Made by a program: the position numbers and the translations under genes
Notes under the pieces: model-generated
Told to the model about the DNA's origin: nothing
What the model saw: only the letters and a program-made list of their open reading frames with translations
Database searches by the model: none
Shown here: positions 4,347 to 29,942 of the stretch, piece by piece
Layout: each line of letters starts with the position of its first letter
How positions within the stretch are numbered: the stretch's first letter is position 1
UHGV virus genome: UHGV-0096558
DNA from: a virus
Direction: 5' to 3' (one strand)
DNA length: 54,457 nucleotides

Positions 4347-4700
4347 ATGCCTGAAGTGTTCCGATGGACACCACAAAGAAGCTACAGCGTAAACAGTGAG
4401 CCTAACGTGTCTGTCATTAAGCTGGGGGATGGGTGTGAACAGCGCCAGACAAAAGGGATTAACCCTTTACTTGATAGCTACAGCCTGGTTTTTAAAGGCA
4501 CAAGCGCCGGATGCGGTGACGCCGGAAACGTGGCGCTCCAGGTTGACGCATTTTTAAGGGCGCGTTGCGCGGTCGAGGCGTTTTACTGGACTCCATCAAC
4601 TGACGGGGTGCAAAGGCTTTTTGTATGCAGAAAGTGGAGCATGACGAAAGACGGCCCGGTATGCACGCTAAACGCAACTTTTGAGCAAGTTGTCAATTAA
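4347..4700 (+). CDS. M: minor tail protein M-like
   Basis: 117 aa ending ...ATFEQVVN, as recalled for lambda gpM; position upstream of L. Confidence 0.75.
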   Translation: MPEVFRWTPQRSYSVNSEPNVSVIKLGDGCEQRQTKGINPLLDSYSLVFKGTSAGCGDAGNVALQVDAFLRARCAVEAFYWTPSTDGVQRLFVCRKWSMTKDGPVCTLNATFEQVVN

Positions 4701-10800: not shown

Positions 10801-12275
10801 CGATGGATACCAACCTGAAAGGTCAGATTTCCAATGTTCAGCGTGCAGTAGCTGACGAGGCGAGCGCCCGCGCTGAAGCTATTAGTGGTGTAAACGCATC
10901 GATCACCAACCTTGATAAGAAAACCGACGCCAACGTAAACCGCCTTGATCAAGCTATCGCTGACGAAACCAGCGCCCGGACTCAGGCCGTCAGTGACGTG
11001 AACGCAAGCATCACCACGCTGGACAAGAAAACTGATGCCAGTGTGAAACGACTTGATCAAGCAATCGCAGATGAAACAAGCGCCCGGACTCAGGCCGTCA
11101 GTGACGTGAATGCAAGCATCAGCACGCTTGATAACAAGGTGACAAGCAATGTGACCCGTATCGACAAAGCTATTGCAGATGAGACAAAGGCACGCACAGA
11201 CGCAATAAGCAGCCTTAACTCATCGCTTACCAGTACGATTAATTCGAAAGTATCTGAAGTATCAACAGCACTTTCTACGCATGAAACATCAAGCGCGGAA
11301 AAATTCAGCCAGATCTCTGCATCTTTCGAAGCGGTAAACTCAAGTATCACAGAATGGTCGCAGACCATGACAACGGCGGACGAGGCATTATCAACCAAAA
11401 TTGATCAGTTAACAGTAACCGTTAACGGGAACACAACGGCGATCGAGACAACATCGAAAGCGTTAACCGACTTCAAAGGTAACGTTGATGCGTCATATTC
11501 AATTAAGATTGCCACCGACAACAACGGCAGAAAATACGCAACAGGTATGTCGCTTGGCCTTACTGGTAGCGGTACTGACGTTCAATCGCAGTGTATTTTC
11601 CTTGTTGACCGCTTCGTGTTAATGACTGCCGCCAACGGCACATACCAGACGCCTTTCTATGTCACTAACGGCGCAATGTATGTGCGCGAAGCGTTTATTA
11701 AAGACGCATCGATCACGACTGCAAAAATAGCACAGCAGATTCAATCAACCAACTTTGCTTCCGGTTCCGCTGGGTGGATGATTAACAAAAACGGCAGCGC
11801 GCAATTTAATAACGTAACTGTAAGGGGGACCGTTTACGCAACATCCGGCGAGTTTTCTGGGACCGTTAAAGCTAAAGCATTTGAAGGTGGCATTAGTTCC
11901 GGTACGCAGGGAACAAGAAGTTCCAGCGGGACGATCACAATTAACGTAACCCCAGCAACCCCGAATAGTATGCTATTGCTTTTCGTTTCTGTATACACGG
12001 CTGGCGTGCGCACAGCAAGCGGCGACCATACCGTCACTCTCCATGCGGGAGGTCGTAGTTTTAACGTTCCTCCGTCTTATCTTGCAGGTAGCGGTGTAGC
12101 GTCAACTTACAGGTTCGATTCAACTATAATTATCCCGGTTACAGGGACCAATAAGAGGGCGGTTTCGATATACTTAAGCCAAGTGGGCCACGTATCATTA
12201 ATAAATACAGATATAAGACTTCTCGGCGCTGTATTACTAAACACCTCATTCTCATCAGGTACTTTTGATTTTTGA
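7836..12275 (+). CDS. J: host specificity protein J (central tail fibre / tip attachment), 1479 aa, with inserted coiled-coil repeat region
   Basis: N-terminal region similar to lambda gpJ over roughly 750 aa (e.g. DILSEGPIYGPV, NPAWLFRYL, EPRMTLNAYIT, GCTSRGQAYRAGKWLIE). Confidence 0.9.
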   Translation: MGGGGGKAKTPVLLNDNLYHKQFYRVLDILSEGPIYGPVNQAAPLNCVMLNDTPITDTVGNASIPGVSIAWRPGSLDQSPINGFNSIESTVMVNAQVKHDTPIIRTVSDRNVNRVRLNIGVDSLVSSDNQGNQYETSVHLAIDIKPSSSSSWTIVKDVIIGPGKISGEYLESHIIDAPSEYPFDIRVRRITADSTSDLLQNDTRWNSYSEIIDDNLSYPHTAVAGCVIDHDQYTDTPTRAYHLRGLIVDVPDNYNPEARTYSGLWLGGFKKAYTNNPAWLFRYLIKNERFGLARQAGYIDVDDGALYVLSQYCDQLVDDGYGGLEPRMTLNAYITEQMSARDLLDNIAGMFRGIALWDGQRLTVMIDAPQDPIATITNANVVDGAFTRSSLARAECYNAVIVSWTDPGNGWEQSKEYVSDDELIARDGYNETTLEAFGCTSRGQAYRAGKWLIETAKREPSKFTFKMARDAIHFTPGDIIEILDNNRAGARLGGRIVANNGKVITVDKVDSEYIAAGDTISLLDSDGKFKKHQITGVNGNNITLAAAPAWIRNGTVFAVSTEAAKPVLCRITSVAETENNSVYTIEAAQHDPNKQAVVDEGAVFEINNDTLNHFRVPNIENLKVMNVGSETVQCSASWMTQTTTHRLTFELRVYNEDSKVVASYETTEFRYDFNGLNCGQYSLGVRARNDTGMKGAESIVDLVIGAPSKPIGVNWIPGVFQATVYPISKTTLTSDTSYEFYFAGETQITNPALVTTNAQYTGRGYQWTFGGMNTGHTYYVYVRTRNAFGVSDFVEASGKPTEDFDEISDYVTKDVMNSDQFKGMVSDIKDLGDRTDLIESATDDLKTATDNLTNITNGLRTDTDDLIAETGSIKADTDTLKKDTEDLYKKVQENADDIGQHEVRIDSLEVSSEKTDSELAQAKASLQNASLALINNSLAQTNTRVTLTAQYKKGKTETKAEIDRIDNVIAEEKKATAESLETITAEMNTMDTNLKGQISNVQRAVADEASARAEAISGVNASITNLDKKTDANVNRLDQAIADETSARTQAVSDVNASITTLDKKTDASVKRLDQAIADETSARTQAVSDVNASISTLDNKVTSNVTRIDKAIADETKARTDAISSLNSSLTSTINSKVSEVSTALSTHETSSAEKFSQISASFEAVNSSITEWSQTMTTADEALSTKIDQLTVTVNGNTTAIETTSKALTDFKGNVDASYSIKIATDNNGRKYATGMSLGLTGSGTDVQSQCIFLVDRFVLMTAANGTYQTPFYVTNGAMYVREAFIKDASITTAKIAQQIQSTNFASGSAGWMINKNGSAQFNNVTVRGTVYATSGEFSGTVKAKAFEGGISSGTQGTRSSSGTITINVTPATPNSMLLLFVSVYTAGVRTASGDHTVTLHAGGRSFNVPPSYLAGSGVASTYRFDSTIIIPVTGTNKRAVSIYLSQVGHVSLINTDIRLLGAVLLNTSFSSGTFDF
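10833..11242 (+). repeat. in-frame tandem repeats inside J: two near-identical 108-bp units (10941-11048, 11049-11156) flanked by degenerate copies; exact 32-mer at 10970-11001 and 11078-11109
   Basis: Read directly; encodes repeated motif RLDQAIADETSARTQAVSDVNASIT.LDKKTDA. Confidence 0.7.
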
Positions 12276-19892: not shown

Positions 19893-21308
19893 TTAAAAGG
19901 ATGCGTTATTCTGGTTGTTTCGTTGGTTAAATCGACTTGTGCGATGATTCATAGACTGAATACATGCAGACGCTGCGCGGGCCTGGTCGCAAGGGAGGAT
20001 ATTGCCGTTGTCGTCAAATCGCTGGTAAACAGTCCCCGTTTTCCCGTGACGGTTTTTCGAAACAATGATCTCCATATATTCGCGGGCAACAGACTGTTCA
20101 TCATAGTACCCGTCGCGGTAGACCATGATGATCCGGTCCGCGTCTTGTTCAAGATTACCGGAATCGCGCAGATCAGAATTGTTCGGGCGCTTGTTCGGTC
20201 GTTCCTCAACGCGGCGGGATAATTGCGCCAGCGCCGCCACTGGCACGCGCAACTCTTTCGCCATCATTTTCAATGACCACGACAATTGCCCTACGGCGAG
20301 ATCATGACGTTCGGCCTTAGCCAGCTTCATTAACCCGATGTAGTCAATCATTACCATCCCCAGGTTAGGATGGTCCTGTTTCATCCGTTCGACGGTGGCG
20401 CGTATTTCCTCGACCGTTAACTGCGATGCGTCAACAATCCACACGTCGAGATCGGCAAGGGCACTCATTCCTTGTGCGACGTGCGCCCAACCTTCGTCAT
20501 CCAGTTTTACCGGATTACGTAGGCAATCCGTTGATAAGTTCCCAGCGCCAGCGATAGCACGTTCAGTCATCTGATCGAGCGACATTTCAAGCGTGAACAG
20601 CAAAACGCCGACCCGCTGACCTTCGCCGCCAGGGTATGGACGTTCAGCCGCCGCGCGGGCAATTGCCAACGCCAACGCCGATTTACCAGACCCCGGACGT
20701 CCGGCGATAAGCACCAGATCAGTAGCGTTAATGCCGCCTAACATTTCGTCGAGTGGGTCAATCCCTGTTTTGATGTTGTCAGAGTTCACGCCACACTCCA
20801 TGCGTTTACTTAACACTTCCGTGTATTCCTGGACCGCATCGCGCAACAGCACCGGGATAATTTGATCTTTTGTTACCTTTAATTTTGAATACCGGGAATC
20901 AAAATCTTTCATCGTCTCCCTGACGACTTCAAGCGTCCCTGTTTCCAGCTTGTAACGAATGTCTTCCATTAGTTCCAGCATTTGCCGCCGCTGGTGTTCT
21001 TCCTGTAGTAGTTGCGCATATCCTTTCAGGTTGGCAGCAGAAGGACACGATCGCGCCGTTTGCATCAGCGGTACAAAATTTTCGTTGCCAATCTCATCAC
21101 CAACCAGCAAGGCGTCGATAAGATTTCTGTTTCTGGCTTGCGCCCGGATAATTTCAAAAGCCCGCTTATATAGCGGAATAGTGAACACTTCAGGATCAAG
21201 CGTAGCGAGAACATCTTGCGCGTTAGGAGTAAGCCCACCTAACAGCAGGCCACCGATAACCGCTGATTCTCTTTCTTGCCGCAATGAGTTTACTTGTTCG
21301 GTTATCAT
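19893..21308 (-). CDS. replicative DNA helicase, DnaB-like
   Basis: Walker A GRPGSGKS, DnaB-type motifs, 471 aa. Confidence 0.9.
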   Translation of the reverse strand: MITEQVNSLRQERESAVIGGLLLGGLTPNAQDVLATLDPEVFTIPLYKRAFEIIRAQARNRNLIDALLVGDEIGNENFVPLMQTARSCPSAANLKGYAQLLQEEHQRRQMLELMEDIRYKLETGTLEVVRETMKDFDSRYSKLKVTKDQIIPVLLRDAVQEYTEVLSKRMECGVNSDNIKTGIDPLDEMLGGINATDLVLIAGRPGSGKSALALAIARAAAERPYPGGEGQRVGVLLFTLEMSLDQMTERAIAGAGNLSTDCLRNPVKLDDEGWAHVAQGMSALADLDVWIVDASQLTVEEIRATVERMKQDHPNLGMVMIDYIGLMKLAKAERHDLAVGQLSWSLKMMAKELRVPVAALAQLSRRVEERPNKRPNNSDLRDSGNLEQDADRIIMVYRDGYYDEQSVAREYMEIIVSKNRHGKTGTVYQRFDDNGNILPCDQARAASACIQSMNHRTSRFNQRNNQNNASF

Positions 21309-22500: not shown

Positions 22501-23016
22501 TTATATGCTTCTTCTACCATGTCGAATACTTCCGGCCTGTAATAGAAAAAACTCATTACTACCATCAAATTTTACAGGGAAGTTAATTTTATAATTGCTA
22601 AAAGCCTTATGCATCGTGCTTTCTAATTCATGGATATTTTCAGTTGGCCCTTCTAACGTTTTCACGATATGCAAATCAGGAATTCTAACACCTGCTTTAT
22701 GTGCGCTTTTTAATATTTCATTTCTTCGCTCGTTCTCCTTAACGCTTACACCAATTTTCATTTGTGTAGGCACTTCCAGATCGTCAGTCATGATGTAAAG
22801 TTTACCGCGCTCATGACGAAGAAAGCCGTATTTTGCGCATTTTGGACAGCCGTCGCCGCGCTTAAGGTTGTGGGGTGTACACATCCTTTTATGGCCACAA
22901 ACTCTGCAGCGGCATAATACTTTTGTTTTGCTATTAATAATTTTCCCCAGCACTTCAACATCAGGATTAACTTTCGCAATAGCGGCAACATGTTCCTCAT
23001 GTGTTAACTTACACAT
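22501..23016 (-). CDS. T5orf172 / GIY-YIG-like domain protein with N-terminal zinc ribbon (CRCRVCGH...CPKC)
   Basis: Cys4 cluster and ...LYIMTDD...KIGVS...ENERRNEI... pattern. Confidence 0.45.
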   Translation of the reverse strand: MCKLTHEEHVAAIAKVNPDVEVLGKIINSKTKVLCRCRVCGHKRMCTPHNLKRGDGCPKCAKYGFLRHERGKLYIMTDDLEVPTQMKIGVSVKENERRNEILKSAHKAGVRIPDLHIVKTLEGPTENIHELESTMHKAFSNYKINFPVKFDGSNEFFLLQAGSIRHGRRSI

Positions 23017-23258: not shown

Positions 23259-23391
23259 TTTAAAATCCTCTCTGAATAGTTCTCTGACGAGCTAATCGCA
23301 AAAAGGTAAGCAAGTGTAGCACCCAATGCGATTTAGCTCGCTGGTGAGATTGTTTTGTGGGTAATTTTGGATTTTTGCGGATCGTTGTTGG

Positions 23392-24390
23392 TCAAAGAGC
23401 GCCCGCGCGAGTATCACGTAGCGTTTTTGGTTTAAGCAGGAAATCAAGTGTCGCAGTGAAGCCATTGCCGAAGTAAAAATCTGAAGCCGTGTTTTTGAAC
23501 GTTTCGAAGTAGGCGACAAAGCCGTTAATGCTTTTGTCTTTCAGGTAGTCAGTGAACGCATAGATCTTGCGTTCAAGATCCCGATCCAGTTCGGCAGGTG
23601 GTAACAGGCCGTCAAACGTGCTGTTAAATGCTTCCACCACGTCGGCAGCGTTTACAGTAGATGATAGCTTGCGCCATTGTTCAGCATCAGCCAAATACCC
23701 ATCGAATTTAGTTACCCGGCAAATGTTAACAGGCTTAGGCACTCCACCACGGCTACGCCATTGCGTCAAAGCCCATTCGATTACTAATGTGATCTCATCC
23801 TCCGTGTATGCCTTACGTGTTTTTGTTTCTGTCAGTAGTTCGATAAATGGCTTAGCATCACGACATTTGCATCCTGCTTTTTCGTTGTAGAAGGCTAAGC
23901 AACGGTAAGCAGCCGCGCTTATCTGAAAGTCACCGTCCTGATTGACATGTTTTTCTCCCAGGGGGATATAAGGGGGTATATCTTTATTTAGATTCTCTTT
24001 ACTGGTTATATATGACTGATTAGGGTTGCTCTCTGCCACTACCCCAGGTTGCTTTGTGCCACTACCCTGGTTGCTCTCTGCCACTACCCCCGGTTGCTTT
24101 GTGCCACTACCTGACAGTGAAGGTAAAACGATTACATAGAAATTGCTCGTTTGTTCTTTCCCGCCGATTAAATAGCGAGGCTGTTTTAGTAACAAGCCTT
24201 TTTTGCAAAGCGCCTCAATTGCTCGCATTGCTGTACTTTTATTTATTTCGCATTGCTTCGCTATGTGCTGGTAAGAAGGGTAACACTCGCCGTTATCGTT
24301 AGCGTTATCAGCCAACTTTAACAGTACAAGTTTGTGCATTGGATTACCGACCTCAGTATGAAACACTTCGACCATTAGCCGCATACTCAT
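23392..24390 (-). CDS. replication initiator, lambda O-like (winged-helix N-terminus), contains iterons
   Basis: N-terminal HKLVLLKLADNANDNGECYPSYQHIAKQCEINKSTAMRAIEALCKKGLL; strong RBS AGGAGG; internal 22-bp direct repeats. Confidence 0.7.
   Translation of the reverse strand: MSMRLMVEVFHTEVGNPMHKLVLLKLADNANDNGECYPSYQHIAKQCEINKSTAMRAIEALCKKGLLLKQPRYLIGGKEQTSNFYVIVLPSLSGSGTKQPGVVAESNQGSGTKQPGVVAESNPNQSYITSKENLNKDIPPYIPLGEKHVNQDGDFQISAAAYRCLAFYNEKAGCKCRDAKPFIELLTETKTRKAYTEDEITLVIEWALTQWRSRGGVPKPVNICRVTKFDGYLADAEQWRKLSSTVNAADVVEAFNSTFDGLLPPAELDRDLERKIYAFTDYLKDKSINGFVAYFETFKNTASDFYFGNGFTATLDFLLKPKTLRDTRAGAL
24024..24113. repeat. four tandem 22-bp iteron-like repeats (GGTTGCTCTCTGCCACTACCCC / GGTTGCTTTGTGCCACTACCCT alternating) inside the initiator gene; candidate origin of replication
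   Basis: Read directly; encodes duplicated peptide SGSGTKQPGVVAESN. Confidence 0.6.
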
Positions 24391-24699
24391 AAATATTGGC
24401 CTCCTATGGTTAAAAATGAACGCGCGGGCGGGTATCCCATTAGCATTAGGTAGCAGTGATTGACCGCTTAACAGATCCCGCCGTTGCGTGATATTTGTTT
24501 TTCGCTTCGCAGCGACACCTAGTTTTTAAAGAGCATAAGGTATGCGCCTTTTTGTGCTATTCCGTTATCTTTTTTCTTGCGTCTTTGCAACTATGGCCTT
24601 ACCTTGTCTGCAAGTTTACAGAATGGCGTTTTTAGGTCAAGACTTGAAAAATACATTTTGTGACTTGTATCAAACTTTTTGAGGTTATAGGGTAGCGAC

Positions 24700-25347
24700 A
24701 TGAAAACAAAATGGTATGACTTAGCAAAGCAGCTCATGCGAGCGCAAGGTATGAGCCAAGATTCACTCGCGGATCTCATGGGGATAACTAAAGGCGGCCT
24801 GTCACACTGGCTTAACGGTCGCCGCGAGCCAAATCTTGAAGATATTGCGCGGATTATGCGGGCGCTTGGTCGTCGGCAATTCACTGTTACACATGATGGA
24901 ATGGTCATTGATGATTCTGTTTCTAACACGTTACCGGGAGCGCCGCAGCGTGATTTAGGTAGTTACCCGGTTGTTGACTGGAAGGACACAGTAAACAATA
25001 TGGATGATACAAGGCTATCAACATTACCACACGTTACGACTAGCGTTATTTGTTCAGATGATAGTTACTGGCTGGTTGCCAAAGGTGAATCAATGAACGC
25101 GCCGCAGGGGTTGAGCATCCCGGCGGGGACGATGATACTTGTTGACCCGCACGCGCCAGCTATTGACGGCAAACTGGTTATAGCCCAGCTTGAGGAAGGG
25201 CAGATACCGACGTTTAAACAGTTGATTATTGATGGAGGTCAAAGGCTTTTACGTTCGCTCAATCCGCTGTATCCGCCAATCCCTATGAATCCAGAATCAA
25301 AAATTATAGGCGTGGTGGTTGATGCGAAGATCGTAAACCTGCCATAA
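24700..25347 (+). CDS. cI: CI-like repressor (HTH plus S24 LexA-type autopeptidase domain)
   Basis: N-terminal HTH (SQDSLADLMGITKGGLSHWLNG); C-terminal ...LVAKGESM... and ...VVVDAKIVNL; divergent from replication operon. Confidence 0.85.
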   Translation: MKTKWYDLAKQLMRAQGMSQDSLADLMGITKGGLSHWLNGRREPNLEDIARIMRALGRRQFTVTHDGMVIDDSVSNTLPGAPQRDLGSYPVVDWKDTVNNMDDTRLSTLPHVTTSVICSDDSYWLVAKGESMNAPQGLSIPAGTMILVDPHAPAIDGKLVIAQLEEGQIPTFKQLIIDGGQRLLRSLNPLYPPIPMNPESKIIGVVVDAKIVNLP

Positions 25348-29846: not shown

Positions 29847-29939
29847 ATGGACGACACATTGCTATTTATGTGTATTTGTTGGGGGTTTATTGCTTTCTGT
29901 TTATTTGTTAGATGGTTTATTGAATACCATATGAGGTGA
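29847..29939 (+). CDS. possible small hydrophobic peptide, 30 aa
   Basis: Manual translation; RBS-like GAGG 8 nt upstream. Confidence 0.3.
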   Translation: MDDTLLFMCICWGFIAFCLFVRWFIEYHMR

Positions 29940-29942
29940 TAT

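Follow-up and report, generated by a model that had tools for sequence, protein, structure and literature searches.

A probable replication origin of lambda/P22-type architecture inside the initiator gene of a mEp021-group coliphage

The virus genome UHGV-0096558 (54,457 nt; the whole stretch analysed, hereafter the window) is a member of the mEp021 (mEpimmI) group of temperate coliphages. Its replication initiator gene contains an array of four direct repeats (iterons), followed by an AT-rich tract. The array and the tract very probably form the replication origin of the phage, with a lambda/P22-type architecture inside the initiator's own coding sequence. A candidate origin had been proposed at this place in a sequence-only reading of the window, and the predictions of that proposal that could be computed all held: the repeats are a DNA-level feature, they lie between protein domains, the AT-rich tract has the expected polarity, and the iterons covary with the putative recognition helix of the initiator.

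The array spanned positions 24024-24111 (plus-strand coordinates) and comprised four direct repeats with 20-bp cores, all within the initiator ORF (23392-24390, minus strand; Table 1). Two core variants, GGTAGTGGCACAAAGCAACC and GGTAGTGGCAGAGAGCAACC, alternated strictly, with 20/20 matches within a variant and 18/20 between variants. Core starts were 23, 22 and 23 bp apart, with a mean of 22.7 bp. TRF reported the array both with a period of 23 (3.9 copies, score 127) and with a period of 45 (2.0 copies, 97% matches, score 169). At an offset of 23, the array matched itself at 44 of 66 positions, compared with 33.9 ± 1.1 (maximum 37) in 100 dinucleotide-preserving shuffles. A search with the degenerate motif, allowing up to three mismatches, retrieved four sites in the 54-kb window, where 0.02 were expected; all four were in the array and none elsewhere in the window. 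The sequence-only reading had described four 22-bp repeats at 24024-24113, in alternating variants and inside the coding sequence of the initiator. The repeats are real, their alternation is strict, and they do lie within the ORF of an initiator-type protein. The size of ~22 bp was right for the spacing (23/22/23), but the end had been set 2 bp too far.

Table 1 Features of the candidate origin and of the surrounding replication module (positions in the window).
Feature	Position	Strand	Details
Iteron 1 (first in gene sense)	24092..24111	(-)	GGTAGTGGCACAAAGCAACC; frame 0 = GSGTKQP
Iteron 2	24069..24088	(-)	GGTAGTGGCAGAGAGCAACC; frame 2 = GVVAESN
Iteron 3	24047..24066	(-)	GGTAGTGGCACAAAGCAACC; frame 0
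Iteron 4	24024..24043	(-)	GGTAGTGGCAGAGAGCAACC; frame 2
Conserved AT-rich tract, 31 bp	23993..24023	(-)	CTAATCAGTCATATATAACCAGTAAAGAGAA in gene sense; abuts iteron 4
Full AT-rich low-stability zone	23976..24023	(.)	Downstream of the array in gene sense
C-rich direct repeat	23960..23980	(-)	TATACCCCCT/TATATCCCCCT in gene sense; bounds the AT-rich zone; resembles P22 TACCCCCTTACCCCCT
Replication initiator gene, 332 aa	23392..24390	(-)	PHROG/Pfam matches
HTH_36 (PF13730) winged-helix DNA-binding domain, aa 16-67	24190..24345	(-)	54.3 bits vs cutoff 25
Initiator C-terminal domain, aa 240-332	23395..23673	(-)	33% identity to P22 gp18 C-terminus over 97 aa, E 3e-14
DnaB-family replicative helicase	19893..21308	(-)	57% identical to P22 gp12 over 444 aa; downstream of the initiator
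phrog_704 'DNA repair exonuclease', 380 aa	21327-22469	(-)	E 1.6e-137; weak N-terminal HTH
T5orf172/MUG113-type endonuclease, zinc-ribbon N-terminus	22501-23016	(-)	Between the initiator and phrog_704 genes
LexA/cI-type repressor	24700-25347	divergent	Upstream of the initiator
Promoter-like site TTGACC-16-TAAACT	24613..24640	(-)	Points into the initiator gene; candidate early promoter; scan count not above chance

Because the spacing of 22-23 bp is no multiple of three, the units differ in reading frame. Successive units were read in frames 0, 2, 0 and 2, encoding two different peptides, GSGTKQP and GVVAESN. The periodicity of 22-23 bp therefore cannot stem from selection at the protein level, and the repeats are a feature of the DNA, not a protein repeat.

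The geometry of the array was compared among 16 related initiators, from the window, five mEp phages, four IMG/VR contigs and six Escherichia coli prophages. In all 16, the array started at gene nt 280 and had the 23/22/23 spacing; in the Ecol_244 prophage, three units only were recognisable. The units followed a common plan of GGTA, the dyad GTGnC-N5-GnnAC and a final C, with the dyad making up the inner 15 bp. It was perfect (7+7 bp) in some units of the relatives and imperfect in the window, where four of the five outer pairs were complementary and G7 stood opposite A17. Most differences between units fell either in the 5-bp spacer at the centre or at positions 8 and 16, which are symmetric. 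Their ends, GGTAGTG...CC, were invariant despite the divergent peptides encoded there (GSGTKQP, GSVRETP, GSVTVTP).

Copy number differed among the 16 relatives, from two units in RM9245 through four in most to six in L011 and N1286, and it changed solely in in-frame steps of 45 bp, that is, of two units. A step of fewer units would shift the reading frame, so the pattern directly marks a dual constraint, coding and binding. The two demands would be reconciled by placing the sites in a length-tolerant linker rich in Gly, Ser, Pro and Gln. The boundaries of linker and domains were drawn from Pfam, BLAST, composition and length variation, because a single-sequence AlphaFold2 model of the initiator (mean pLDDT 34, pTM 0.21) was unusable for this purpose.

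The initiator strongly matched PHROG families labelled 'replication initiation O-like', with E values down to 4e-31, and 'replication initiation protein'. The array encodes aa 94-123 and so falls between the N-terminal HTH_36 domain (aa 16-67) and the gp18-like C-terminus (aa 240-332), which we propose to be a helicase-recruiting domain. A search for PF04492 (Phage_rep_O) gave no match in the initiator at E ≤ 0.01, compared with 123 bits for lambda O and 130 bits for P22 gp18, and BLASTP against lambda O returned nothing meaningful. Judged by these searches, the initiator is not a member of the lambda O (PF04492) family. The earlier label 'O-like' stands as a statement of function, and as the PHROG name, but not as one of homology, the DNA-binding domain being HTH_36 (PF13730).

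An AT-rich unwinding element had been expected near the repeats, and an AT-rich zone of low stability was found directly downstream of the array in gene sense. The 40-mer at 23976-24015 had a GC content of 22.5%, within the lowest 0.5% of 40-mers, and the one at 23977-24016 ranked fourth in the window for low stability (top 0.1%). The gene-sense strand of the zone was A-rich, a feature shared with lambda and P22. Its first 31 bp, CTAATCAGTCATATATAACCAGTAAAGAGAA, were identical in all 16 relatives except for one C/T position and fell in the 30-nt bin with the highest conservation in the gene alignment (mean pairwise identity 0.95, versus ~0.86 gene-wide). We propose this tract as the start of the DNA-unwinding element.

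Beyond the AT-rich tract, the alignment reached a mosaic junction, with identity falling to 0.56 at gene nt 421-450. Two alternative segments occurred after the array, and they assorted independently of the iteron classes described below. The window-type segment, TATACCCCCTTATATCCCCCT, resembles TACCCCCTTACCCCCT, found at the same place in P22 gene 18, and the mEp021-type segment is a palindrome, AATACACTTCGTGTATT. The C-rich direct repeat that bounds the AT-rich zone in the window was not conserved across the group, other relatives having the palindrome in its place.

The symmetric positions 8 and 16 of the iterons changed jointly, across all or most units of a phage. G:C iterons were found in four genomes (the window, mEp021, E21845 and N1286), together with the initiator residues N50, S52, E59, A60 and K63. 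Seven genomes (mEp554, L011, L008, PAR, KKa019, RM9245 and Ecol_244) had T:A iterons together with S or G50, S52, D59, A60 and E63. A mixed class, with one T:A unit, A:T units and occasional asymmetric T/T units, was found in the five remaining genomes (mEp044, mEp010, mEp013, L010 and L009, the last being IMGVR_UViG_3300010283_000003, with an initiator of the mEp044 iteron class), together with S50, R52, D59, S60 and E63. Class-tracking residues were thus N50, E59 and K63 for G:C, D59 and E63 for T:A, and R52 and S60 for A:T. The association between iteron class and N-domain residues held in 16/16 sequences; since these are phylogenetically related, few independent events lie behind this number, namely at least three classes on two or more backgrounds. 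Residues 16, 41 and 46 did not track the iteron class among the 16 sequences: L008, PAR and their subgroup have N16, Q41 and Q46 as in the window, yet their iterons are T:A.

In a PDB sequence search, residues 50-63 aligned with the recognition helix of PdhR, which has a winged helix of the GntR type. The match was marginal (E 0.45) and was used solely to suggest where the recognition helix is located. A putative recognition helix at ~aa 50-63 would carry the class-tracking residues, and the covariation is the pattern expected if dimers of the N-terminal domain read the half-sites. Going one step further, the initiators and iterons of the mEp021 group could be a natural series of orthogonal origin/initiator pairs, in which specificity comes from a single symmetric base pair of the half-site (GTG[G/T/A]C) and from two to four helix residues (among 50, 52, 59, 60 and 63) of otherwise near-identical proteins. 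We regard this as a tentative reading that falls a little short of being probable. If true, it would provide an unusually compact, readable 'code' for origin recognition by HTH_36 proteins, which could be used for building compatible replicons. It could also explain a diversifying replication specificity, and perhaps replication-level exclusion, in a group with one immunity type.

From these features, the following course of initiation can be envisaged. Dimers of the N-terminal domain would bind each iteron via the half-sites GTGGC and GCAAC, and the four occupied sites would assemble into an O-some-like nucleoprotein complex. This complex would stress and melt the adjacent AT-rich tract. The gp18-like C-terminal domain would then bring the phage's own gp12-like helicase to the melted DNA, in the manner of P22 gp18 and gp12, after which host primase and polymerase would take over. 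As in lambda, the origin is probably traversed by transcription, which would come from the early control region (24391-24699, ~250-500 bp upstream). A promoter/terminator scan of 23300-24750 yielded two promoter-like sites versus 2.3 expected and was therefore uninformative.

The array and tract share their layout with known in-gene origins of lambdoid phages: the repeats lie in the initiator gene, between the parts encoding its domains, the units contain a dyad, and the AT-rich tract follows downstream in gene sense. The origin of P22 has four ~20-bp repeats in gene 18 (bioRxiv 10.1101/2020.10.05.325894). P22 and the phage studied here have homologous C-terminal ~90 aa of the initiator and helicases that are 57% identical, and in both the repeats occupy the middle of the gene, behind the part for the DNA-binding domain, with an A-rich tract next and a TACCCCCT-type repeat beyond it. 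They differ in the N-terminal domain, which is HTH_36 (PF13730) here and Phage_rep_O (PF04492) in P22 gp18, and in the iterons, whose sequences are unrelated. In addition, two extra genes, for the T5orf172-type endonuclease and the phrog_704 protein, lie between initiator and helicase here, whereas P22 has no phrog_704 counterpart between genes 18 and 12. By sequence comparison, the closest relative of the module is P22 18/12, not lambda O/P. It is best described as a module of the P22 18/12 type whose origin-binding domain, together with its iterons, appears to have been exchanged for an HTH_36 domain with iterons of its own.

The lambda origin comprises four 18-bp iterons (ITN1-4) and a 38-bp AT-rich sequence in gene O (PMC3349717). 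According to the annotation of the lambda record, the iterons are spaced 20/24/23 bp apart at nt 349-433 of the 900 nt of O, and a tract with 22% GC follows. The sequence-only reading had seen the layout as a mirror of the lambda origin inside O, and this comparison was upheld. Both origins have four sites with internal dyad symmetry, at a mean spacing of ~22.3 bp in lambda and 22.7 bp here. In both, the sites are located between the N- and C-terminal domains of the initiator, and the AT-rich tract lies downstream in gene sense, with an A-rich sense strand and similar GC contents (22% in lambda, 22.5% here). The molecules themselves are different: the initiator lacks similarity to O and a PF04492 domain, and the iterons are unrelated. 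Furthermore, lambda hijacks the DnaB of its host by means of the loader P, whereas the phage studied here brings a DnaB-type helicase gene of its own.

In the study of phage L, distantly related origin-binding proteins were described as each binding different iterons in their own coding region (bioRxiv 10.1101/2020.10.05.325894). Gene 18 of phage L, with six 11-bp repeats, resembles the array in having initiator-specific iterons within its own coding region. MagusPhagus and mEp515 of the mEp021 group also have 11-bp repeats, four in number, together with a different N-domain. The mEp021-group classes differ from the phage L and other lambdoid types in that as little as one symmetric base pair and two to four helix residues separate them. 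Likenesses also exist to plasmid iteron origins of the Rep_3/RepA kind (pSC101, F, P1, RK2), which have ~20-bp direct repeats with a ~22-bp period, a winged-helix initiator and an adjoining AT-rich unwinding element. However, plasmid iterons lie outside the rep gene, usually beside DnaA boxes, whereas the iterons here are coding. No Rep_3 domain was matched in the initiator, and no DnaA box (TTWTNCACA) was found within 22.5-25.5 kb. By domain and motif content, the array is not a plasmid Rep_3-type origin.

Alternative explanations were weighed against an origin. Sites bound by the initiator could serve autoregulation or the silencing of replication, by a roadblock or titration within the initiator's own gene, with the true origin elsewhere in the genome. 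Lambda iterons on a plasmid can indeed silence replication independently of the AT-rich tract (PMC3349717), and the covariation indicates binding specificity, not origin firing. We nevertheless consider this explanation improbable. The window holds no second copy of the motif, and its sole other tandem repeat with a non-coding appearance (29865-29922) sits in an ORF for a hydrophobic peptide. Moreover, a conserved AT-rich tract of low stability directly adjoins the array and has the polarity known from lambda and P22, and phage genetics places the origins of lambda, P22 and L in the replication-gene region (bioRxiv 10.1101/2020.10.05.325894).

The other two alternatives deny the repeats a role as binding sites. 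The array might merely be a flexible protein linker duplicated in tandem (GSGTKQPGVVAESN x 2) and functionless as DNA, since the 45-bp period preserves the frame and yields a clean peptide repeat of 15 aa, in a Gly/Ser/Pro-rich segment whose length varies among relatives. Yet such a duplication predicts the 45-bp period only. It leaves unexplained why each 45 bp contains two near-identical 20-bp cores in different frames, why these have an internal dyad with concerted changes at positions 8 and 16 in step with recognition-helix residues, and why the GGTAGTG...CC ends are invariant over the peptides GSGTKQP, GSVRETP and GSVTVTP; we judge it very improbable. Still less credence is given to the view that modular recombination, at the junction of exchangeable initiator domains, left the repeats behind or uses them as its substrate. 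A mosaic breakpoint does lie just downstream (identity 0.56, gene nt 421-450), the N-domain swap of MagusPhagus and mEp515 ends near the array, and the two post-array segments assort independently of iteron class. The breakpoint, however, comes after the AT-rich tract and not within the array, the position, spacing and ends of which are strictly conserved, and recombination by-products would show no dyad covariation with the recognition helix.

Two further indications of an origin were considered and rejected. Cumulative GC skew had a local minimum at ~22.5-24.5 kb, but this coincides with the switch between divergent transcription directions and is therefore not diagnostic. The 29-bp x 2 repeat at 29865-29922 was discarded as an alternative origin because it lies within a small ORF for a hydrophobic peptide; the surrounding region (29848-29940) contains this short ORF, the product of which is the ~30-aa peptide MDDTLLFMCICWGFIAFCLFVRWFIEYHMR. 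Another tandem repeat in the window, at 10902-11187, has a 108-bp unit in ~2.1-2.2 copies with 79-85% matches, and it may be part of a structural gene.

Several observations were made on the neighbouring genes. The phrog_704 protein, which may be an accessory replication factor, was encoded directly upstream of the helicase in the relatives examined. What occupied the slot of the endonuclease gene differed in every relative: mEp021 has a zinc-ribbon gene of 1488 nt there, other relatives have genes of 744 or 537 nt, and HNH or homing endonucleases are encoded close by. The slot resembles a hot-spot for mobile endonucleases inside the replication module. Upstream of the initiator, a ~246-nt gene for a stand-alone HTH_36 protein of 81-84 aa (mEp021_14, 'MarR-like') is missing from the window (24391-24699). 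In the mEp phages, MagusPhagus and the prophages E21845, N1286 and RM9245, this gene separates the early control region from the initiator. In the window, the ribosome-binding site AACCATAGGAGG is followed directly by the initiator ATG, an arrangement shared by the E. coli prophages PAR, KKa019 and Ecol_244. The small upstream HTH_36 ORFs were considered as split-off N-domains of the initiator, but at 28-35% identity to that domain they are separate genes. Their product may be an analogue of Cro, or else a regulator that works at the origin.

Assignment of the array as the origin would locate replication initiation in a recently defined, gut-prevalent coliphage group. The paper defining the mEpimmI group (PMC11893012) is silent on iterons, and wherever it uses 'origin' or 'ori', something other than a replication origin is meant. 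The design itself is already well known from lambda, P22 and L, and the understanding of how such origins work is unchanged. What the comparative series offers is experimental handles: three iteron classes differing at one symmetric base pair, the matching helix substitutions, and variants with two, four and six copies. These would be useful for studying initiator specificity, origin strength and the dual constraint of coding and binding.

Related arrangements were found with other initiators. In MagusPhagus (L003) and mEp515 (L004), a Lin1244_N domain (PF14297) replaces HTH_36 in front of the same C-terminal domain, and four 11-bp AGGGTCATGA repeats with an A-rich run are present at the equivalent position. 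The exchange of the N-domain is accompanied by different repeats, which agrees with the covariation among the 16 relatives. The phage group probably has, at this locus, an origin of a second type. The design of an origin inside the initiator gene would thereby extend from Phage_rep_O to HTH_36 and Lin1244_N initiators. In detail, the minus strand of the locus (in MagusPhagus at 4620-4680, and in mEp515) has the AGGGTCATGA repeats, then GAATTAGAA repeats, the A-rich run and the palindrome ATACACTTCGTGTAT.

Among 58 distinct full-length HTH_36 initiators from viral contigs, 45 had an array with a period of 18-26 bp at nt 240-460, and unit sequences and copy numbers differed between these arrays. 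A large family of HTH_36 initiators at the IMG/VR loci L021-L071 (e.g., L041, L052 and L057) had palindromic iterons, GGTGGGGCAGGAGCTGCCC(GG/TAGGG). The iterons are translated into GGAGAAR/GGAGAALG peptide repeats, and their copy number varied from one to ~6 among genes that are otherwise near-identical.
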